DNA of 64,000 nt. It comes from Bacteroidetes bacterium GWE2_42_24 (GTDB lineage Bacteria > Bacteroidota > Bacteroidia > Bacteroidales > TTA-H9). A program made the translations under genes and the position numbers. The DNA is taken from assembly GCA_001768515.1 (NCBI GenBank), contig MEOA01000020.1, positions 5,873 to 69,872 on the forward strand, read 5' to 3'. The first letter of the stretch is position 1. Every line of letters starts with the position of its first letter. The notes under the pieces were generated by a model that was given only the letters and a program-made list of their open reading frames with translations, was not told the origin of the DNA and made no database searches. Positions 46,085-55,764 of this stretch are shown in pieces.

Positions 46085-46597
46085 ATGTTCGACCGGATTG
46101 AGATAATCAGAGGGGATATCACCCAGATAAAGGTAGATGCCATTGTAAATGCCGCCAATACATCTCTCCTTGGCGGAGGTGGTGTTGATGGCGCCATCCA
46201 CAGGGTGGCGGGTAAAGAATTATACGAAGAATGTAAGGGGCTGAAAGGATGCCCGACCGGAAGCGCCAGGCTAACAAAAGGGTACCTGTTACCGGCTCCT
46301 TTTGTGATTCATGCCGTAGGTCCGGTGTGGCGTGGAGGTACTTCCAACGAGAAGGCTCTGCTTGCCAGTGCATATCAGTCGGTTTTAAACATTGCAGTTG
46401 AACACAAGTTGGCTTCTCTCTCTTTTCCCAATATCAGTACAGGGGTTTATGGCTTTCCCAAACAGGAGGCCGCAGGGATAGCAGTGATTACCGTTATCAA
46501 TCATCTTGATAATCATCAATGGCCACAGAAGGTGGTCTTTGTCTGTTATGATGAGGCTAACTACCTTATATATCAGGAGATGCTTTCGGGATTATAA
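46085..46597 (+). CDS. Macro-domain protein (O-acetyl-ADP-ribose deacetylase, YmdB-like)
   Basis: 170 aa with GDITQIKVDAIVNAAN, LLGGGGVDGAIH and ISTGVYGFP. Confidence 0.85.
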   Translation: MFDRIEIIRGDITQIKVDAIVNAANTSLLGGGGVDGAIHRVAGKELYEECKGLKGCPTGSARLTKGYLLPAPFVIHAVGPVWRGGTSNEKALLASAYQSVLNIAVEHKLASLSFPNISTGVYGFPKQEAAGIAVITVINHLDNHQWPQKVVFVCYDEANYLIYQEMLSGL

Positions 46598-47902
46598 TCC
46601 GAACTCCTTGGCTTTTTTGGATGATTTGGCAGGATTCCAGGCGTCGTTATAAGATGAGTACCAGAATATCTCCTTCACATAGGCCATGGAACGGATAATA
46701 CGCATGTAATATCCATTGTAAACCATCATCAGCGGGATATAGTACAGTAACCGCATCTCCTGTCTGCGCCGTTCAGACAGGGACAGAACGACAAAAAACT
46801 GGATATAGGAGGAGACAGAGTATATAATTAGCTTTAATGGAATAATAAACAGTAGAAATTCAAGATTATTTACAATCAGATCGACGAAATAGTAGAACCA
46901 GAGAACGTCGAGAATCAGGTTGTAGAATATATTATCAAAGAGTGCAAAGAAGTTAGAGAAGGTAAAAGCCTGCGACGGCATGAAAATATCATTGTGCTTT
47001 CTGAAACGGAAACGAATAAGCGATTTGCTCCACCTTAATCTTTGGTTCGAGAGTTTATTTAAGGTCACAGGAACCTGAGTTAGCCCGACTGCCCTGTGTT
47101 CGAAGGCTACCTTAAAACCCAGCTTTCTGATTTTAACAGTAATATCGCCATCCAGACCCGGGCCAATATCCCAACCGCCGAGCCGATCGAGAAGATCACG
47201 GCGGAATGCCCCGAAAGCGCCCGAAACAATCTTGTAGATTCCAAGGTAAGCAGTAACCATCCGGCCTACGCTTATCGTTTGCAGGTATTCGATGGCCTGC
47301 AGGCTTGAGAGGATGGAATCCTTTGAGTTTCTTACTTTGATGTTTCCGCCGACAGCTCCTACCCGTGAATCAAGGTAAAAGGGAATGATAATACTCTCGA
47401 TGGCATCTCTGTCGAACGATGTGTCGGCGTCAACGTGAACAATATATTTTCCGGTGGCATAACGTAGCGCAAGGTTTGCCGCACTTGCTTTTCCTCCGCG
47501 TTCTTCATTACGCAAATAGATATCGATCAGACCGTTCTGCTTCAGGTTGCGACAGATTGTGTAGGTGTCGTCAGTAGATCCGTCATCGACAATGATAAAT
47601 TCAATGTTTGAATAGGTCTGTTCCCTGAAGCCTGTTACAAGCGCAAAGATGTGCTCTCCCTCATTCTTTCCCGGGACAATAATACTGATCAGCGGATTTT
47701 CAGCAAAGAAGGCATTGCGTGCAGCTTCATATTTTAGTTTGCGCTTTTTGGAAGGCCAAACGATTACGGCCAAAACAATCAGATCCATGAGTATAAACCT
47801 GGGAGCCTCCAGGTAAAAGAAGTACCAGAAAAGATTTATTATACGCTCAAAACCTTCGTGCTGAATGTAGTAAAAGAAGTCTTCCCAGAAGCCAAATAGC
47901 AT
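46592..47902 (-). CDS. Processive family-2 glycosyltransferase (PgaC/NodC/cellulose-synthase-like polysaccharide synthase)
   Basis: 436 aa with N- and C-terminal TM segments. Motifs are IIVDDGSTDDT, HVDADT, GLDGDIT (equivalent of the TED position) and QRLRWSKS (QxxRW). It is the last gene of the four-gene operon. Confidence 0.85.
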   Translation of the reverse strand: MLFGFWEDFFYYIQHEGFERIINLFWYFFYLEAPRFILMDLIVLAVIVWPSKKRKLKYEAARNAFFAENPLISIIVPGKNEGEHIFALVTGFREQTYSNIEFIIVDDGSTDDTYTICRNLKQNGLIDIYLRNEERGGKASAANLALRYATGKYIVHVDADTSFDRDAIESIIIPFYLDSRVGAVGGNIKVRNSKDSILSSLQAIEYLQTISVGRMVTAYLGIYKIVSGAFGAFRRDLLDRLGGWDIGPGLDGDITVKIRKLGFKVAFEHRAVGLTQVPVTLNKLSNQRLRWSKSLIRFRFRKHNDIFMPSQAFTFSNFFALFDNIFYNLILDVLWFYYFVDLIVNNLEFLLFIIPLKLIIYSVSSYIQFFVVLSLSERRRQEMRLLYYIPLMMVYNGYYMRIIRSMAYVKEIFWYSSYNDAWNPAKSSKKAKEFGL

Positions 47903-47905
47903 AAG

Positions 47906-49297
47906 TTACCTCCCGCTTCCGATCAATTGAGTAAGTACATCATTCTGAGGTAAAGAACCATCAATGGTCACCGTCTGAACCGAAATCTCGATATCAATTC
48001 CAGGCAGACTGCTTTCGAGTAGCTTGATAACTGAGCCTTTAATCTGGTTAATGAGTCCGTCTAATCTTTCACGATTTGTTTCGGGAGATATAAATAAAAA
48101 GGTATTACTATTGACCAGCGACAGGATGTCGGTTGAAAGGGTAGCATTTTTTACAAAGTCGGCAATTTCAAGCATCATCCGGTTGTAATTGCTTCCCATG
48201 TTTTCACGGGTACGGGGAGAGAGCCTGATCACCAGGCTGCCGGCCGCACTCTCCTTAGAAGTCTTTGCCCGCTCAATTTCATATTTCAGGAAAATATTAA
48301 ACGTCGTAGCCGTGATAAAGCCAGGAATGCTAACGTCTTCGGCCACATCACGTGATGGACCATTCTGGGCAGTCTCTTCACCAATTGGCGTCAGCTCATA
48401 ACTATAAATCGGCACATCAATGAGGGAATCAATCGAGTTGTTCTTTTTACAGACAAAACAGAAAGCCTCCATAACCGGTTCCTGGAATACATGGCTGCAA
48501 TTTTTGCAATTGTAGATTAAGGATGGCTTGTCATAATCGACACCGATGTGTCGTAACATACGGTTGCATTTAGGACATACCAGATAATCGCCTGAAAGAA
48601 AATCATGTTCAGGTCCGACATAAGCGCAAACAAAGTGATGTATCAGGTTCTCGGTTACCAGGTCAGCCGATTCACATTTGGGACATGTTTCACGAAAGTT
48701 CAGGAATGAACTGTAGCATGAACTGCATACATGCAGCTTGTCGACGAACCTGCTCCTGAAATATTCCTTTTCGGTAGCGGTTTCAAATAGCTGGAACATC
48801 TCCTTCAGATTGGTCTGGTCATAATGATCTGAGATAACCGGGAAGTTATAACCTATATGGGACTTATGATCGACAACAGGGGTCAGGCGCGTTTCACGGG
48901 TAAACATGAAGCGCATGGCTTTTGTAAGGATCCGGATATCGGGTGAACTGCTGTCAACCGATACCAGTTGATCCTGACGCAATCGTATTCTGTCGATTCT
49001 GCTGATAATGGCCTCGATCTGAACAGAAGAAACAACACCATCGCTCATCGCCTCCATCACTTTATCAATTTCATGATTAATTGACAGAATAAAGATGGGC
49101 ATCAGGTAGATAGTACCTATCATCGAATTACGACATTGTCTGACGAATCTGGAACAACCATCACGATCGGTGTAGTCAAGAATCAGCGCATCATAAATGG
49201 CGAGTTTCCTGATGTCAACTGAGTTAAAATCGTTGATCAGTATAATCTCCAGATTTCTGTCGTTACTAATTTTCCTTCCAAAAATGGGATCAGACAT
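47906..49297 (-). CDS. Receiver-like domain, five-CxxC zinc-ribbon module (TackOD1-like) and degenerate GGDEF-like domain protein
   Basis: 463 aa. The N-terminus has a REC-like strand pattern (LEIILINDFN...YDALILDYTDRDG...MPIFILS). The centre has CSSC, CPKC, CPKC, CKNC and CFVC. The C-terminus is collinear with GGDEF domains, but NSNTF replaces GGDEF. Confidence 0.55.
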   Translation of the reverse strand: MSDPIFGRKISNDRNLEIILINDFNSVDIRKLAIYDALILDYTDRDGCSRFVRQCRNSMIGTIYLMPIFILSINHEIDKVMEAMSDGVVSSVQIEAIISRIDRIRLRQDQLVSVDSSSPDIRILTKAMRFMFTRETRLTPVVDHKSHIGYNFPVISDHYDQTNLKEMFQLFETATEKEYFRSRFVDKLHVCSSCYSSFLNFRETCPKCESADLVTENLIHHFVCAYVGPEHDFLSGDYLVCPKCNRMLRHIGVDYDKPSLIYNCKNCSHVFQEPVMEAFCFVCKKNNSIDSLIDVPIYSYELTPIGEETAQNGPSRDVAEDVSIPGFITATTFNIFLKYEIERAKTSKESAAGSLVIRLSPRTRENMGSNYNRMMLEIADFVKNATLSTDILSLVNSNTFLFISPETNRERLDGLINQIKGSVIKLLESSLPGIDIEISVQTVTIDGSLPQNDVLTQLIGSGR

Positions 49298-49349: not shown

Positions 49350-50420
49350 TTAAAAGAACCGCAGTTTAGAGACCTGAACTGTGAACTGATAATAGGATCT
49401 CCATATTCGCTTCTCGTCATCATTCACCGGATTAACAACGGCCACAACATTTCGTTGATCCTTACCGCGGATTTTACGAAAAGGTTCCGGGACTGACTCA
49501 GTATTTACATAAAATTCCTTTATACGCCCCTTGCTTCTCGTTCCGTCCAAAAACCTGAGATTAACAACATCTCCGGGTTCAAAATATTCCAGATCGTTTT
49601 GCTCGATGAATACCCGGATAAAGATCTCATCGAGATTTGAGATATACATAATGATATCCTGGCGGAATGATATTTCATTCTCAGGCTTAGGTATCTTGGT
49701 GATAATACCTGAGACCGGACTCACATAATATGACTTAATCGGAGCGTTACCATCACCAAATCCAACCGTAGATAACTGATATTTTTTGTAATCATCCTCG
49801 AACGAGTCCAATTGTCGAAGGTACTGCTGCAGATAGCCCAGTTCACTAACCTTACGCTGCCTTTCAACACGCAGGTTCTCGACCACCATCCGTTTCTCGC
49901 TTAATATTGCAGGACTTACCAGATCGAGATGCACCTCCATTTTCAATCGTTCGATCGCTGCATTGGTCTGTGCTATATTATTGTCAATATCGCGAATATC
50001 TATATATTTCAGGCTAATGGTCTTCTTTGTATTCATTCGTTCTTTGGTCACCCATTCATTCGGTTTATCAATAACGACATTATTGAAGACAAATGCACCA
50101 CCATTCCCATTGTCGTGATCTCTGAAATCAGATTTGTACGCGAAGAGTGTATCTCCCTGTTCCACCATATCACCTTCAGCAACAAAATATCTGGTTATTT
50201 CTACATCATTGGGCTGTGTTACTTCAAATCTTTCGGTGATGACCTCTCCAAGAGAATAAACATAAAGGTTTTTCTGAAGGATATAAACAGCAAGACTCAC
50301 GATCATGAAAATGAAAATCGACATATAGATAATACGATCCCAATTTCGTGACTTTTTAGGTTTTTCTTCCTTGATTCCGGTGATGATGCTTGCTTTATTC
50401 TGAAATTTGAATTGTTTCAT
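49350..50420 (-). CDS. HlyD-type membrane fusion protein
   Basis: 356 aa with a single N-terminal TM segment (IIYMSIFIFMIVSLAVYIL). It has a lipoyl-like hairpin (GDMVEQGDTLFAY ... SGIITKI), a coiled-coil and a beta-barrel region. Confidence 0.75.
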   Translation of the reverse strand: MKQFKFQNKASIITGIKEEKPKKSRNWDRIIYMSIFIFMIVSLAVYILQKNLYVYSLGEVITERFEVTQPNDVEITRYFVAEGDMVEQGDTLFAYKSDFRDHDNGNGGAFVFNNVVIDKPNEWVTKERMNTKKTISLKYIDIRDIDNNIAQTNAAIERLKMEVHLDLVSPAILSEKRMVVENLRVERQRKVSELGYLQQYLRQLDSFEDDYKKYQLSTVGFGDGNAPIKSYYVSPVSGIITKIPKPENEISFRQDIIMYISNLDEIFIRVFIEQNDLEYFEPGDVVNLRFLDGTRSKGRIKEFYVNTESVPEPFRKIRGKDQRNVVAVVNPVNDDEKRIWRSYYQFTVQVSKLRFF

Positions 50421-50458: not shown

Positions 50459-52600
50459 TTATTTTGATACTGAACGGTTATCCAGTTCAATGAGTCTGCC
50501 TAAATCATGGATGGCCAATTGATCGGCCCCCAATTTATCAAGCAACTTGCGAACAAAGGCCTCGAAGAGCAATCGATCTTTAAAATCGGCAGCGCTCAGG
50601 GCAACTATTGTCTTAGAAGCGTTAATAGCGAATTCTTCGGACACTTTCTGGGTAATATACTCGACATCCGGATGCTCGTATGCCATAAGGTATACCTTAT
50701 CGCACAGGTTGTAGATACTGTCTAGAAGTACCCTGTTGTAGTAAACAGGGATCGATACTGACAGTTGAAAACCATTGGCATCACAGATATTTCTTGCTTT
50801 CCTGAGCATGTTGATATACTCGGCCTCATACATGCCAGAATTGGTTTTGAAGTCATCTATGGTATGTATTTCAACATCCAGATGAATTGATTTCATTCCA
50901 AAACGGCGGGCAAGCTCAACCTTCTGTGTGAGGTATGAAACTGCCGATGCCGAATCAACCCTTTGGTGTCCTGTCAGTAAATGGGTGTTGATGTTGATGG
51001 CTTTGGCCTGAAAAACGAAATCCTCAACTTTTTGATCGAATTCAGGTGTCCTGTCATTACCTACCGAGAGAAGCACCTCCTTGATTTCTGAATTTCTCAG
51101 GTAAGCAAGCATTGTATTGAGCGGCATTTCTTTAAAGTCAGACGACCAGATATACAATGAACGTTTGCCCTGATATTTTCTCGATAAATCTTCGGGAGAC
51201 ATTACGCTGACAAAACTATTTGGGTTCTTCTCCTCAAGCGAGGAATAAATTTTCAGGAATTTTAGATACAAATCCTTCTTTATATCAACCATTTCAATCT
51301 CGATACTGATTTTTTCATCAAGAACAGATATGGCTCTCAACGGACTAAACGACTCAAGACCAAGGTCACGCTTCACGATCTCCTTCCGTAAACGCTCTTC
51401 TACAAGAAGCAACTTAAAATAAAACGAGATGTATTGCATCTTTTTAAATTGGTATTCATAGTAGTTGTTGAGCAATTCGCTACCCGCACCAAAACGCTCG
51501 TTTTCCTGATAGTTCTCCATGATCTTCTGTCTTGCTGCCCTCGATTCCCCCTGATGTGATTTGAGCTTCAAGGGAACACTCAGGTTAACGCCTGCTGAAG
51601 TATAAGTCCGGTCATTTGTATTGTCCAGAGCCATGTAATTGAAGCGTACATAAGGCTTCAGACTCCAGTCGGAAAAACGGTTGTACTCCAGGTCAATTTT
51701 GTCAAGCTTCAGATTGGTCATCTGGTTAGCGGTGACAGATTTGTTGAAGATGTCTACCATCTTGTTGGCATCCAGATCAAGAATGGGCAAATAATTATAC
51801 AGGAAACTGTCGTCGAGAATCATATCAGGAAATGAGTTCTTCAGTCGCCGGTTGTAATAAACATCATTGTTGTTCATCATAACCTCTACTTCCGATAATT
51901 TGCTCTGCAGATCAAGAATATCCTCCCATTGGATATAGCGCAGAAAATAAAGTTGATGTGCGATCTGAAGCTGCTCCTTCAACACGTTGTAGCGCTGGTT
52001 CAACTTTTCGATTTTCTGCCGTTTGAACAGATAAGTCAGGTAGTTGTATATATACAGGTAATTGCTCTCCTTGTTGTCGAGCGAACTTTCCAATTGCTGA
52101 ATTTCAAGATCTTTATCCAGGATTTTTGCGCGCTTCAGATTACTAAGCAACCCTCCACTCAACAAATCCCACTCAATGCCAACATAGAACCTACGGTTGT
52201 AGGTCAGATCTTCATTATCGAGTACGCCAGGTTCAAAATTTTCAATGTAAGAACCTGTGAGTTTTAGTCCGGGATCACCTATTAATTTTGATTTTTCTTT
52301 CTCATAATAGGTAATGAAGGCTTCGTTTTGGTTGTTAACGCTGTAATTGGTGCTGAACAGCATCCTGACGAGTACGGTATCATCAATCTGTTTAGGGGGA
52401 ATGGATTTATTAAGTTGGTTGTTAAGAAAAACATCAACCCTTGCTGATATTGATTCAAGACTCAATGAATCATGATCGCCAATGCTTGGTTTTAATGTTG
52501 TTACCTTTTGGCTGTATCCCGGTTCAAGCGAACATGTCATCAATACGATGATGGTTCCAAAGCAGGCAAACATGGATAATTTTGATTTCACAAACAACAT
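50459..52600 (-). CDS. TolC-like outer-membrane channel fused to a C-terminal GH18-like TIM-barrel domain
   Basis: 713 aa with a signal peptide. The two OEP-like halves contain YVGIEWDLLSGGLLSNLKRAK and SAGVNLSVPLKL. The C-terminal roughly 270 aa alternate beta/alpha segments. FGMKSIHLDVE resembles the GH18 DxDxE block and VYLMAYE resembles the GH18 MxYD block. Confidence 0.6.
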   Translation of the reverse strand: MLFVKSKLSMFACFGTIIVLMTCSLEPGYSQKVTTLKPSIGDHDSLSLESISARVDVFLNNQLNKSIPPKQIDDTVLVRMLFSTNYSVNNQNEAFITYYEKEKSKLIGDPGLKLTGSYIENFEPGVLDNEDLTYNRRFYVGIEWDLLSGGLLSNLKRAKILDKDLEIQQLESSLDNKESNYLYIYNYLTYLFKRQKIEKLNQRYNVLKEQLQIAHQLYFLRYIQWEDILDLQSKLSEVEVMMNNNDVYYNRRLKNSFPDMILDDSFLYNYLPILDLDANKMVDIFNKSVTANQMTNLKLDKIDLEYNRFSDWSLKPYVRFNYMALDNTNDRTYTSAGVNLSVPLKLKSHQGESRAARQKIMENYQENERFGAGSELLNNYYEYQFKKMQYISFYFKLLLVEERLRKEIVKRDLGLESFSPLRAISVLDEKISIEIEMVDIKKDLYLKFLKIYSSLEEKNPNSFVSVMSPEDLSRKYQGKRSLYIWSSDFKEMPLNTMLAYLRNSEIKEVLLSVGNDRTPEFDQKVEDFVFQAKAININTHLLTGHQRVDSASAVSYLTQKVELARRFGMKSIHLDVEIHTIDDFKTNSGMYEAEYINMLRKARNICDANGFQLSVSIPVYYNRVLLDSIYNLCDKVYLMAYEHPDVEYITQKVSEEFAINASKTIVALSAADFKDRLLFEAFVRKLLDKLGADQLAIHDLGRLIELDNRSVSK

Positions 52601-52736: not shown

Positions 52737-52880
52737 AATAAATCTGGTATTCAATAATCGAAATAAAAAAAACATCAACAAAAAGTCTGGTGTAAAAGCA
52801 GACCTCTGTAATTTTCCAAAAAATACACATCTTGTTCAATTTAAAACTCGCGGGAGTTTATTTATCCATGGGAACTATGT

Positions 52881-52888
52881 TATCTTTG
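52881..52888 (+). promoter_or_regulatory. Bacteroidota -7 box (TAtcTTTG) for the divergent REC-HK gene
   Basis: tatctttgcgg lies 18 nt upstream of the ATG at 52907. Confidence 0.5.
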
Positions 52889-52906
52889 CGGACTAAAAAT
52901 AGCAAG

Positions 52907-54502
52907 ATGGAACCCAGACTCCGCTTACTGATAATTGAAGACGACCCAACCAGTGCAAAATTGATGCAGATAACCCTTAACCGGCTGGGATATGAAGTTG
53001 TCGGGATTGCTCCTAATGGTCAGGCAGCCATCGAACTTACGAAAGAAACAAGTCCCGATCTATTGCTGATGGACATCAATCTTCCCGGCCAGTTCGACGG
53101 TATCGAGACCGCCAGAATCATTAACCAGAAATATGATATCCCCGTCATTTATGTTACAGCAAATACTGAGGATGAAACCATCAAACTGGCTATAGCTACC
53201 AATCCTATCGGTTATCTGGTGAAGCCATACAGCAGAGAGCACCTGAAGACCATGGTTGAAATGGGATTTTACAAGCACAAACTTGAAAATGAGTTAAAGA
53301 AAAATCAGGAAATGCTCTCAGTTACTCTTGAAAACATTGCTGATGGTGTACTAATGGTTCAAAGTAACGGAAATATCCTGTTTCACAATGATGCGACGAT
53401 TAAAATCCTGAATCTGGAAGAGGAAAATTTATCGGGAACTTCAATCTTTAGTTTGTTTCCCAACATCAGTATTGATGCTTTTGATAATACAAAAGGCAAA
53501 TCTTTTCAATCAGCCGGTGTAATAACCTACACCGATGTTCAATGGTCATCTGATAACGGCCTTTCGCTGATACTTGAACAGCAGATAACCAAGATACAAA
53601 ATGCCATCGATGACGCTTCAACTTATGTAATAACTTTCAGGGATATTACGGCACGCAGGATGGAATCAATCCGTTTGGTTAAAATCAAGGAGGAATTGGA
53701 AGAACGGGTTGAGGTGCGTACCCTCGAGATCAGAATGAAGAACCTGGAACTTGAACGTGAGAATAAAATAAGAGTTGAAGCCGAAAAGGAGCTTAAAGAA
53801 GCCTTGGTTAAACAGAAAGACCTGACTAATTTTCAGGCAAATATTGTTACTACTGTATCGCACGAATTCAGAACGCCGCTCACTACTATACAAAGCTCGG
53901 CAGAACTTATTGAACGAAATGTTAATAAGGGATCAGAACCGGATGGTATTCTGAAACATGTAGGGCAAATCAGAAATTCGGTAACCACCCTGACGGCCCT
54001 GCTCAATGATGTTTTACTGGTCGAAAAAATGAATGCCTCTAAACTTGAAGTTACTTTAGAATCTTTATCACCCGAAAGCTTCTTTCAATGCCTTGCCGAC
54101 GAATATAAAATTGGTACAGGTAGAAATCACGTACTCGAATACCAGCATAACGTTTTTCCTTCAGAAATTAATATTGACAGGAAACTCCTTGGACATATTG
54201 TCAACAATTTGATGAGTAATGCTTTTAAATACAGCCCTGTCGGCAGTACGGTCATGTTGGTTGTATTTATTGGTGATAATCTATTGAAAATTATTGTTAA
54301 AGACCAGGGTATTGGTATCTCTGAATCCAATGTTCAATATGTGTTCGATACATTTTACCGCGAGCCATCCGCCGTCAATATCGAAGGTACAGGTGTTGGT
54401 CTGGCCATTTTAAAAGAATCAGTTGATTTGATGGGTGGAACCATTCAGGTGGATAGCAAAAAGGGGCATGGTACAACCTTTACGGTTTCCATACCCCTTT
54501 GA
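52907..54502 (+). CDS. REC-PAS-coiled-coil-HisKA-HATPase sensor kinase
   Basis: The start is taken at MEPRLRLLIIEDDPTS. It has a receiver (LLLMDINLPGQFDG), an H-box (SHEFRTPLTTI), an N-box (NLMSNAFKYS) and a G-box (GTGVGLAIL). Confidence 0.85.
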   Translation: MEPRLRLLIIEDDPTSAKLMQITLNRLGYEVVGIAPNGQAAIELTKETSPDLLLMDINLPGQFDGIETARIINQKYDIPVIYVTANTEDETIKLAIATNPIGYLVKPYSREHLKTMVEMGFYKHKLENELKKNQEMLSVTLENIADGVLMVQSNGNILFHNDATIKILNLEEENLSGTSIFSLFPNISIDAFDNTKGKSFQSAGVITYTDVQWSSDNGLSLILEQQITKIQNAIDDASTYVITFRDITARRMESIRLVKIKEELEERVEVRTLEIRMKNLELERENKIRVEAEKELKEALVKQKDLTNFQANIVTTVSHEFRTPLTTIQSSAELIERNVNKGSEPDGILKHVGQIRNSVTTLTALLNDVLLVEKMNASKLEVTLESLSPESFFQCLADEYKIGTGRNHVLEYQHNVFPSEINIDRKLLGHIVNNLMSNAFKYSPVGSTVMLVVFIGDNLLKIIVKDQGIGISESNVQYVFDTFYREPSAVNIEGTGVGLAILKESVDLMGGTIQVDSKKGHGTTFTVSIPL

Positions 54503-54528: not shown

Positions 54529-55764
54529 TCACCGGTTGGCTACAGGTGCCATCTGTTTAAAGTTTACCACGCTGCTGAGTTTATACTGTTGTTGCTGATC
54601 ATCAGTAATTCTGCCCAGGATATATATAGCATAATTTCCTTTAGGATTTTTTCCTGATCTTATTTTTACATTCAATGTAAAATCAAAGGGTTCGGGAAGC
54701 TCGTTGAGTGTAATGGTCAGGTTTCTGTCGTCAGATGTAAAATCTATCTTTGGACCGATTTCCTGATCGGGAGCATAGAAGTTTTCGGGGAGTAAAACTT
54801 TTATTTCACCTTTTCCAACGATGGAGGCTTTATAAATCTGAATATTCAGCGTTATTTCTTCACCCTCTTCAATCTCATCGGGAACTACCCAGGCAATCAC
54901 ATCAACCGTTGAGGGATTGGACTGGCCAACTTTACCCTGAATAATTTCGGGTAATTCGTTGTTAAGGTTATTTGTTTTTAAGGAATTCCATGCAGATCCG
55001 GTAGCGGTTGGCTGAGCCTGCGGCTTATCTGACTTCTTCAGATCAAACATATAACCAACACCCACAGAGGTATAGGAGTACATATCCTGTTTAACGGCTG
55101 AACTTCCTTTTACAGTTCCGTCGATTTTATCGGTACTCGTACCATGTAATGAGGTTTCTATGCCCAGATACACATTATCTGAAACATTATAGTTTAATCC
55201 CAGTCCTACCGACATCGAACCATCGAGCTCGCTTTTGCTTGAAGGTGCTACTCCTGCAGGAATGGTAACCGGCACATCACCTGGTTTGGAGACCGAATTA
55301 TTTATTGCAACTGAATTCACTTTCCAGTTGATAAAGCCTAAACCAACCGTCGCATACGTCCGATAGCTGTTTAAATAGCTATCGTCCTGCCACAAACGGC
55401 TAAAGCTGAATGTTGTCTGAAGACTTGCGTTTAAAAGGTTTGATTCAAATTTATACCCAAGAGCCTCGCTTCTGCCCGCAACCTTTCCGTTCATCAGATG
55501 TGCACGAATGCCAAAGTATTTGCCCAACTGCTTTTCCAGTGCCAGGCCATAACCCAGTCGCCAGTCACGCATATATGGAACACCATCTTCACTCACATCA
55601 CCATGAAATAACACGGCACCAAAGTGAACCTCTGCACGCCAGTTTTTAAAGAATCCTCCAGTTTTAGCGACAGAATCTGTGGCCTGTGCTTTCAGGGGTT
55701 CCGCCGTTCCTAAAATTAATATTAAGGAAAGAAACAAACTGCATTTGAAAAATATCCTGTTCAT
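54529..55764 (-). CDS. Outer-membrane beta-barrel (OmpA-N/porin-like) protein with an extra C-terminal domain
   Basis: 411 aa with a signal peptide. It has alternating amphipathic strands with aromatic ends (WRAEVHFGAVLFHGD, YGLALE, VGVGYMF). The C-terminal roughly 130 aa form an Ig-like beta-rich region. Confidence 0.55.
   Translation of the reverse strand: MNRIFFKCSLFLSLILILGTAEPLKAQATDSVAKTGGFFKNWRAEVHFGAVLFHGDVSEDGVPYMRDWRLGYGLALEKQLGKYFGIRAHLMNGKVAGRSEALGYKFESNLLNASLQTTFSFSRLWQDDSYLNSYRTYATVGLGFINWKVNSVAINNSVSKPGDVPVTIPAGVAPSSKSELDGSMSVGLGLNYNVSDNVYLGIETSLHGTSTDKIDGTVKGSSAVKQDMYSYTSVGVGYMFDLKKSDKPQAQPTATGSAWNSLKTNNLNNELPEIIQGKVGQSNPSTVDVIAWVVPDEIEEGEEITLNIQIYKASIVGKGEIKVLLPENFYAPDQEIGPKIDFTSDDRNLTITLNELPEPFDFTLNVKIRSGKNPKGNYAIYILGRITDDQQQQYKLSSVVNFKQMAPVANR

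Follow-up and report, generated by a model that had tools for sequence, protein, structure and literature searches.

A TackOD1 protein with a degenerate GGDEF fold as a likely regulatory subunit of an exopolysaccharide synthase cassette in Bacteroidales

The window analysed here is a stretch of 64,000 nucleotides from Bacteroidetes bacterium GWE2_42_24 (contig MEOA01000020.1, positions 5,873 to 69,872), and the gene under study, referred to below as the regulator, encodes a 463-residue protein in a cassette that also contains a polysaccharide synthase gene. A preliminary description, made from the DNA letters and their translation, had proposed an architecture of receiver-like, TackOD1-like and GGDEF-like parts. 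Its open reading frame, its motifs and the spacer of exactly 3 nucleotides between the regulator and the synthase (TAA ctt ATG) were confirmed, and the strand (minus) can now be added. The three-domain architecture was right as well: TackOD1 is certain, the dead GGDEF fold is identified by profile and structure comparisons, and the receiver part is backed by weak matches. The protein thus consists of a receiver-like N-terminal domain, a TackOD1 domain with twelve conserved putative zinc ligands and a GGDEF fold unable to make cyclic di-GMP (c-di-GMP). The gene and its parts are as follows.

47906..49297, minus strand: regulator gene for the pseudo-receiver / TackOD1 / degenerate-GGDEF protein (open reading frame list, 463 aa, ATG start)
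48944..49297, minus strand: receiver-like (pseudo-receiver) N-terminal domain, plausibly, aa 1-118 (structure model, Foldseek, hhalign)
48392..48925, minus strand: TackOD1 domain (PF18551), aa 125-302 (Pfam)
48449..48727, minus strand: three predicted zinc ribbons, CSSC+CPKC, HFVC+CPKC and CKNC+CFVC, aa 191-283 (motifs and invariant columns)
47909..48331, minus strand: degenerate GGDEF-fold domain, aa 323-463 (profile and Foldseek)
48128..48139, minus strand: LSTD (aa 387-390) at the RxxD inhibitory site (I-site), with the Arg lost and the Asp kept (profile alignment)
48098..48112, minus strand: NSNTF (aa 396-400) at the GG(D/E)EF position (profile alignment)

The regulator is a soluble protein in which no transmembrane-like segments were found, and its AlphaFold (AF2) model has a pLDDT of 87.8. 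By charge count, all of its domains are net acidic. An identical protein is recorded in a Bacteroidales metagenome-assembled genome (MAG) as a 'hypothetical protein' (P0001), and a profile search of 1.84 billion representatives retrieved 1061 clusters at E<=1e-30. The central domain matches the Pfam TackOD1 model with E=2.8e-56 and 190.5 bits (cut-off 32), residues 125-302 covering model positions 11-188, so that what had been called TackOD1-like can be named outright. The domain is defined by eleven conserved cysteines in five CxxC motifs and one HxxC motif (PMC5847659), and the regulator has the same count: C191SSC, C205PKC, H221FVC, C241PKC, C264KNC and C280FVC all lie inside residues 191-283 (93 residues), the HFVC being an addition to the five CxxC motifs (CSSC, CPKC, CPKC, CKNC, CFVC) listed earlier. 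Among 20,000 shuffles that preserved the composition of the protein, not one had five or more CxxC motifs. The eleven cysteines and the histidine are 90-100% conserved (conservation figures refer to 234 homologues unless stated otherwise); LIHHFVCAYVGPE and LRHIGVDYDKPS are strongly conserved motifs of the zinc-ribbon region, and H220, D254, D256 and K257 are invariant polar residues of TackOD1 besides the zinc ligands. Judging from the order of beta-hairpins in the model, the ligands (C191/194, C205/208, H221/C224, C241/244, C264/267 and C280/283) would pair into three four-ligand zinc sites. This invariant three-by-four pattern looks like structural zinc, and the suggestion of redox or metal sensing through the cysteine clusters gained nothing beyond the presence of the cysteines themselves.

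Archaeal TackOD1 was described as an output domain fused to REC (Galperin et al. 2018, PMC5847659), and within the searchable literature the domain is mentioned only in that paper, which named it. As in the archaeal REC-TackOD1 regulators, the TackOD1 of the window protein (five CxxC plus HxxC) directly follows a receiver-type domain (PMC5847659). The archaeal proteins, however, have a canonical REC, no GGDEF, and a place in type IV pilus loci, whereas the window protein has a degenerate receiver, an appended GGDEF fold and a synthase partner.

For the C-terminal domain, Pfam GGDEF (PF00990) gave no match in the window protein at E<=1, and a profile built from 53 homologues matched GGDEF domains in the PDB at E=6.7e-9. 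In the profile alignment to DgcR, NSNTF falls on GGEEF and LSTD on the RKSD I-site, while the Mg/GTP-binding DxD...N..D columns of DgcR fall on unconserved residues (HMMER alignment). Foldseek comparison of the AlphaFold model with isolated GGDEF domains gave target-normalised TM-scores of 0.55-0.69, mostly ~0.6-0.7, with a root-mean-square deviation of ~3 A over ~138 columns. Relatives do reach the Pfam GGDEF model (Plesiomonas 41.6 bits, Photobacterium 30.2 bits, cut-off 23.8), and neither GGDEF nor GGEEF occurs anywhere in the sequences of the motif search set (0 of 424 proteins, comprising family members and their homologues). Since the GGDEF motif and the Mg/GTP-binding residues are absent in the alignment, the domain is a dead cyclase fold; the earlier proposal of a GGDEF-like domain with NSNTF in place of GGDEF and without RxxD is borne out by both the profile and the structural matches.

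The genes around the regulator that are needed for its interpretation are listed here.

46592..47902, minus strand: glycosyltransferase family 2 (GT2) processive synthase, PgaC/NodC/HAS-like, with QRLRW and transmembrane segments (Pfam, profile matches)
49350..50420, minus strand: HlyD-like membrane-fusion protein (periplasmic adaptor) with one N-terminal transmembrane helix (Pfam)
50459..52600, minus strand: outer-membrane factor (OMF), OEP/TolC-like N-terminal part and GH18-like C-terminal domain with HLDVE (Pfam, profile)
52832..54502, plus strand: divergent REC-PAS-HisKA-HATPase hybrid kinase, likely start 52907, candidate signalling partner (Pfam)

On the minus strand the cassette is read in the order OMF-GH18-like protein, HlyD-like adaptor, regulator (third of four) and GT2. 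The GT2 is closest to the PgaC/NodC models and to chondroitin and hyaluronan synthases, and the Pfam matches of the adaptor (HlyD_3, 22.7 bits, cut-off 22.2) and the OMF (OEP, 30.7 bits, cut-off 22) are weak but above threshold. A locus scan with one genome per species yielded at least 551 loci, and the best 80 were analysed. The OMF-HlyD-regulator-GT2 order is kept in 76-79 of these 80, with the GT2 adjacent to the regulator in 78 and the HlyD-like adaptor conserved in 78; in 74 of 78 loci the regulator stop and the GT2 start are at most 10 nucleotides apart or overlap. The 80 loci span Bacteroidales, Flavobacteriales, Cytophagales, Chitinophagales, Desulfuromonadales, Nitrospirae and Hydrogenothermaceae, and the regulator-GT2-HlyD module was found in Bacteroidota, Alpha-, Gamma- and Deltaproteobacteria, Nitrospirae and Aquificota. 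Regulator and synthase genes are coupled with hardly an exception. This near-universal tight linkage supports the earlier proposal, made from gene position, that the regulator may control the synthase post-translationally. A sigma-70 promoter scan of the Bacteroidota locus was uninformative.

This linkage bears on the possibility that the regulator is a transcription factor or nucleic-acid binder, in which the TackOD1 zinc ribbons bind DNA or RNA and control the operon while the other domains sense, which we regard as very unlikely. Binding to nucleic acids is common among zinc ribbons, TackOD1 was described at the outset as an output domain of response regulators, an eight-cysteine TackOD1 relative in PriA positions the DNA-unwinding wedge (PMC5847659), and there are weak Pfam matches of the regulator to transcription-factor zinc ribbons (E 0.08-0.3). 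However, structural genes flank the regulator on both sides and in most loci it overlaps the start of the synthase gene, an arrangement that suggests equimolar co-production. Moreover, no helix-turn-helix was found in the Pfam scan of the regulator, the archaeal REC-winged-helix-TackOD1 proteins already have a separate DNA-binding domain (PMC5847659), and Tenacibaculum-type loci (see below) carry a separate LytTR regulator. The net charge of the TackOD1 zinc region (-3 in the window protein, family median -2) is a mild argument in the same direction.

The cassette has the parts by which tripartite exporters are recognised, namely a GT2 with QxxRW and transmembrane segments, an HlyD-type adaptor and a TolC/OEP-type OMF. 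Tripartite export by GT2, HlyD and TolC proteins is known from BgsBA and from cyanobacterial cellulose (PMC13438883), with second-messenger control of both exporters (PMC13438883, PMC5567048). The window cassette resembles BgsA-BgsB-TolC of Sinorhizobium and the cyanobacterial cellulose system in combining a processive GT2, a membrane-fusion protein and an outer-membrane factor. In BgsA it is the synthase that carries the c-di-GMP site, whereas in the window control would presumably lie with a separate TackOD1 protein; also unlike BgsA-BgsB-TolC, the window OMF is dedicated to the cassette and fused to a GH18-like domain. This domain (50459-51235, the last third of the 713-residue OMF) has an invariant HLD-x-E and is joined to a TolC/OEP-like protein. 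Seven of 26 orthologues match PF00704 (best 7e-7), and a profile of the domain aligns with chitinase 3g6l at E 0.007, its HLDiE coinciding with the catalytic DxDxE; when the C-terminal domain of the OMF was searched against the PDB as a single sequence, no match was obtained, and Pfam did not recognise a GH18-like domain in the window OMF itself. With such a fusion, the protein that forms the export channel would itself contain a glycosidase-like module.

In Tenacibaculum and other Flavobacteriaceae, the cassettes have a gene of the UDP-glucose/GDP-mannose dehydrogenase family between adaptor and regulator (e.g., L041:6577-7947). These Tenacibaculum-type loci (L036, L041, L046, L055, L057, L060, L064-L066 and L073) also have a DUF4114 protein after the GT2 and, upstream, a single-domain REC, a PAS(-GAF) kinase and a REC-LytTR regulator. 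Because of the GH18-like domain, the UDP-sugar dehydrogenase in the Tenacibaculum-type loci and the relatives of the synthase, the gene content suggests a polymer containing N-acetylglucosamine (GlcNAc), possibly also uronic acid.

Proteobacterial homologues were found with tblastn against plasmids and chromids, and in gamma- and alphaproteobacteria the gene order is regulator, GT2, HlyD. As an example, Plesiomonas shigelloides has a 'diguanylate cyclase' (TackOD1 E=1.7e-61 and GGDEF 41.6 bits), then a GT2, then an HlyD adaptor, and Photobacterium and Phyllobacterium have the same order. The Plesiomonas and Photobacterium regulators are TackOD1+GGDEF proteins with an RDTD I-site. An hhalign comparison of the Plesiomonas protein with the family profile covers columns 34-441 (Prob 100%, E=4e-41); the GT2 proteins in this comparison are 33% identical (E=3e-55) and the HlyD adaptors are barely similar (E 0.002). 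In Photobacterium (L083:4539-6542) the mxdABC-like module is immediately preceded by the gene for a LapD-like c-di-GMP receptor (LapD_MoxY_N-HAMP-GGDEF-EAL) and followed by that for a DHH/DHHA2 phosphoesterase. The 29-kb mobilizable plasmid pKAM345_3 of Aeromonas caviae (L082:6800-8182) carries a lone TackOD1+GGDEF(RDTD) gene, annotated 'diguanylate cyclase', near a PAS-MCP gene and with neither GT2 nor adaptor, so the regulator can evidently travel alone. An 'Arenicella' locus (L050, contig JBLFXO010000046.1) encodes a regulator 95% identical to proteins on Crocinitomicaceae contigs; a homologue search with this protein retrieved only Crocinitomicaceae-type proteins, and the contig was probably mis-binned into a gammaproteobacterial MAG.

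This gene order is that of the Shewanella oneidensis mxdABC genes, in which a degenerate GGDEF gene (mxdA) is followed by genes for a GT2 (mxdB) and an efflux-pump-like adaptor (mxdC) (PMC3691769, PMC3409153). MxdA is reported to bind c-di-GMP, to have a receiver protein, CheY3, and a cyclase as interaction partners, and to trigger the Mxd machinery (PMC7666153, PMC11395469); it is required for the three-dimensional biofilm (PMC3691769, PMC7666153, PMC11395469). Like MxdA, the window regulator is a degenerate-GGDEF protein encoded beside a GT2 and an HlyD-like adaptor, and the regulators of gammaproteobacterial loci in mxdABC order are homologous to the window protein over their full length and contain TackOD1. 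The resemblance to MxdA that had been pointed out from gene position is thus stronger than an analogy, although membership of MxdA itself is argued from gene order. Shewanella was absent among the matches listed in the homologue searches, including the one with the deltaproteobacterial query P0092; the NVDEF motif of MxdA is absent from all 424 proteins, and in the searchable literature no paper connects MxdA with TackOD1. There are also differences. Unlike the MxdA cluster, the window protein lacks RxxD, and unlike in mxdABCD the order is OMF-HlyD-regulator-GT2 and not A-B-C-D, the cassette has its own OMF fused to a GH18-like domain, and a REC-PAS kinase adjoins it.

Kinase neighbours and the RxxD I-site are distributed in opposite ways. 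RxxD is found in 130 of the 234 homologues, those of the Crocinitomicaceae type and the non-Bacteroidota members, and outside this set in gammaproteobacterial proteins with RDTD; it is absent from the Bacteroidales clade of the window, which has [LFT]xxD at the I-site. A histidine-kinase-like neighbour was observed in 2 of 30 loci with RxxD versus 40 of 51 without it, not counting the window, which has a kinase. For this table (2/28 versus 40/11) Fisher's test gives p=1.8e-10, uncorrected for phylogeny, and for eight sequence clusters (0/3 versus 5/0) p=0.018. In the non-RxxD clades, an orthologue of the REC-PAS-HisKA-HATPase kinase of the window adjoins the cassette, often together with a 365-residue REC-HATPase protein. 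A family member in a Bacteroides-like MAG (L030:7918-12356) stands beside the REC-HATPase and REC-PAS-kinase pair with no GT2, adaptor or OMF; upstream in that locus are a 925-residue TPR protein and a bactofilin, with a class-II cAMP phosphodiesterase nearby. The RxxD-less proteins P0353, P0411 and P0420 have an inserted canonical REC (P0353 E=1.5e-19), and in Palleronia the homologue carries a REC (42 bits) that makes it a true response regulator; its gene is followed by a GT2 and an HlyD-like gene and flanked by genes for a response regulator, a histidine kinase, an Hpt protein and a GAF-histidine kinase. In the family, I-site or receiver-pocket residues are conserved in a clade-specific manner. 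Archaeal TackOD1, an output domain joined to REC (PMC5847659), fits this picture. Taken together, this supports the idea of receiver-type signalling and c-di-GMP as alternative inputs to what would be one effector scaffold. Since the clades with RxxD are nearly devoid of kinase neighbours and those without it lie beside REC-histidine kinases, we infer that the clades losing RxxD were rewired from c-di-GMP to two-component input.

The same site raises the question whether the regulator is still a c-di-GMP receptor, binding through a non-canonical site (Asp390 with another Arg, or the His/Asp-rich motifs of TackOD1), in which case the neighbouring kinase would have no bearing on it. LSTD retains the Asp of RxxD, the relatives mentioned above keep the full motif, the probable prototype of the family, MxdA, binds c-di-GMP (PMC7666153), and the invariant polar residues H220, D254, D256 and K257 could offer a TackOD1 site. 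On the other hand, the Bacteroidales clade has Leu, Phe or Thr throughout at the position of the I-site Arg and the loss of RxxD coincides with the gain of kinase neighbours. Enzymes of c-di-GMP metabolism are, in addition, scarce in many Bacteroidota. We consider a retained c-di-GMP receptor unlikely in this clade.

If the input comes from a kinase, the N-terminal domain is the candidate to receive it. It carries D23, D36, D41 (in ALILDYTD) and S72, its family-invariant residues are R56, L65, P67, D86 and G87, and its model (residues 1-118) has a pLDDT of 87. The best Foldseek matches of this model are all CheY-like and weak (E 0.035-0.1, TM 0.45-0.5): the AdiA wing domain, the CikA pseudo-receiver, GlnR, WspR and CheY. 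In hhalign against 79 receiver domains from related loci (Prob 54%, P=1.2e-4), D41 aligns with the phospho-acceptor Asp and S72 with the conserved Thr (T87). The domain is thus plausibly a pseudo-receiver, on weak matches; of the REC-like N-terminal segment described earlier, the presence of the Asp (D41) and the absence of the Lys were correct, and the fold itself is weakly supported. Two lines of argument were abandoned. The canonical Pfam REC in P0353 was rejected as proof that the N-terminal domain is a receiver, as the alignment shows an extra inserted domain, and D41 was dropped as a mark of kinase-linked clades, being ancestral.

The explanation that we favour, and hold to be rather likely, is that the regulator serves a GT2-adaptor-OMF exopolysaccharide machine as its regulatory subunit in the cytoplasm, in a variant that has lost the c-di-GMP I-site and is tied to the REC-PAS kinase. 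The machine would have four parts: the inner-membrane GT2, the HlyD-like adaptor, the TolC-like OMF with its GH18-like domain, and the regulator. The latter would dock on the synthase, most likely through the strongly conserved surface of TackOD1, and once docked would gate polymerisation post-translationally as an on/off subunit, as the degenerate-GGDEF receptors MxdA, PssE and PelD may be taken to do on their own synthases. In most of the family the input would be c-di-GMP at the RxxD I-site. In the Bacteroidales clade of the window (LSTD, Arg gone) it would most likely be the neighbouring REC-PAS histidine kinase, acting on or via the receiver-like N-terminal domain either by contact between the kinase receiver and this domain or, less likely, by phosphorylation of D41. 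The earlier idea of a link to the divergent REC-histidine kinase accordingly survives in the conserved neighbourhood and the near-exclusion with RxxD, but direct phosphotransfer to D41 is doubtful, as the missing Lys and acidic pair argue against it.

Several observations weigh against this explanation and should be considered here. In the N-terminal domain, the Pfam receiver model (PF00072) finds no match at E<=1, and the sequence profile gives nothing significant against the PDB, the sole match being the RpfC REC at E=0.37. There is no Lys at the K109 (beta5) position, positions 90-91 being Ser; helix alpha-1 is apparently missing from the model, and the acidic pair after beta1 is not conserved. 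Because of the missing Pfam match and Lys, and apparently also of helix alpha-1 and the acidic pair, D41 phosphorylation is doubtful; D41 is moreover found in RxxD-bearing proteobacterial members and does not track kinase neighbours. The exclusion between RxxD and kinases rests on few independent clades, and the two-component neighbours in Tenacibaculum-type loci include a REC-LytTR transcription factor, so kinase adjacency there may reflect only transcriptional control. The regulator is probably MxdA-type and its family the MxdA family by gene order, gene content and the published description, not by the MxdA (SO_4180) sequence. Finally, synteny cannot separate a synthase subunit from an operon-encoded transcription factor, and the interaction with the synthase is a predicted one.

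The degeneracy of both signalling domains would also suit a constitutive structural or assembly subunit, with fossil domains scaffolding the synthase complex, or a thiol/metal redox sensor, the eleven cysteines being redox-active in principle. Degenerate REC/GGDEF modules can be scaffolds, as in BcsE-type proteins. Against either role, I-site or receiver-pocket residues are conserved clade by clade, which speaks for selection on the input sites, as does the repeated recruitment of canonical REC domains or of neighbouring kinases; in addition, an invariant set of 4+4+4 ligands is what structural zinc typically shows. We therefore judge this reading quite unlikely.

Beyond the cassette, a predicted outer-membrane protein of 411 residues is encoded downstream of the kinase (54529-55764, minus strand) and is kept there in L001-L008 and L012 (22-64% identity). 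On the other side, a macro-domain-like open reading frame (46085-46597, plus strand) converges with the GT2 gene (46592-47902, minus strand) and overlaps its 3' end by 6 nucleotides. The macro-domain-like, NfeD-like and inositol-monophosphatase-like genes are syntenic only in the closest relatives (L001-L007, L012).

The regulatory subunit proposed here would have precedents in synthase-dependent exopolysaccharide operons. PssE of Listeria is an I-site receptor encoded in such an operon (PMC4125290), and PssE and PelD are needed to switch on their glycosyltransferase (PMC4125290, PMC7112168). The window protein shares with PssE and with PelD of Pseudomonas the inactive GGDEF fold and the location in a synthase-dependent operon; these two are membrane-anchored and have RxxD and no TackOD1, whereas the window protein is soluble and has LSTD and a zinc-ribbon domain. 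Degenerate-GGDEF regulators of synthases, and the Mxd system, are thus known already. What appears to be undescribed so far is their TackOD1 content, their huge spread in Bacteroidota and the switch of input.

A broader reading, which we put forward as tentative, is that TackOD1 acts as a general clutch coupling a receiver, in cis or in trans, to surface-polymer machines, be it the bacterial GT2 synthases or archaeal type IV pili. The input would have been swapped repeatedly among c-di-GMP at RxxD, a fused canonical REC, and neighbouring REC-kinases acting on a pseudo-receiver; the window protein would be c-di-GMP-independent and driven by a phosphorelay in a c-di-GMP-poor phylum, and the polymer would contain GlcNAc and be possibly hyaluronan- or chitin-like.

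If the favoured explanation of a synthase subunit is true, TackOD1, a domain of unknown function with more than 1000 clusters at 50% identity, would gain a specific job in the control of polysaccharide synthases. It would also link the Shewanella Mxd biofilm system to a widespread and unstudied Bacteroidota cassette, found, among others, in marine Flavobacteriia and in pathogens of fish (Tenacibaculum, for instance). The family would then represent a natural experiment, in which one regulator scaffold apparently works on c-di-GMP in some lineages and on two-component input in others, and this input switch would help to explain how the matrix is controlled in phyla with little c-di-GMP signalling.

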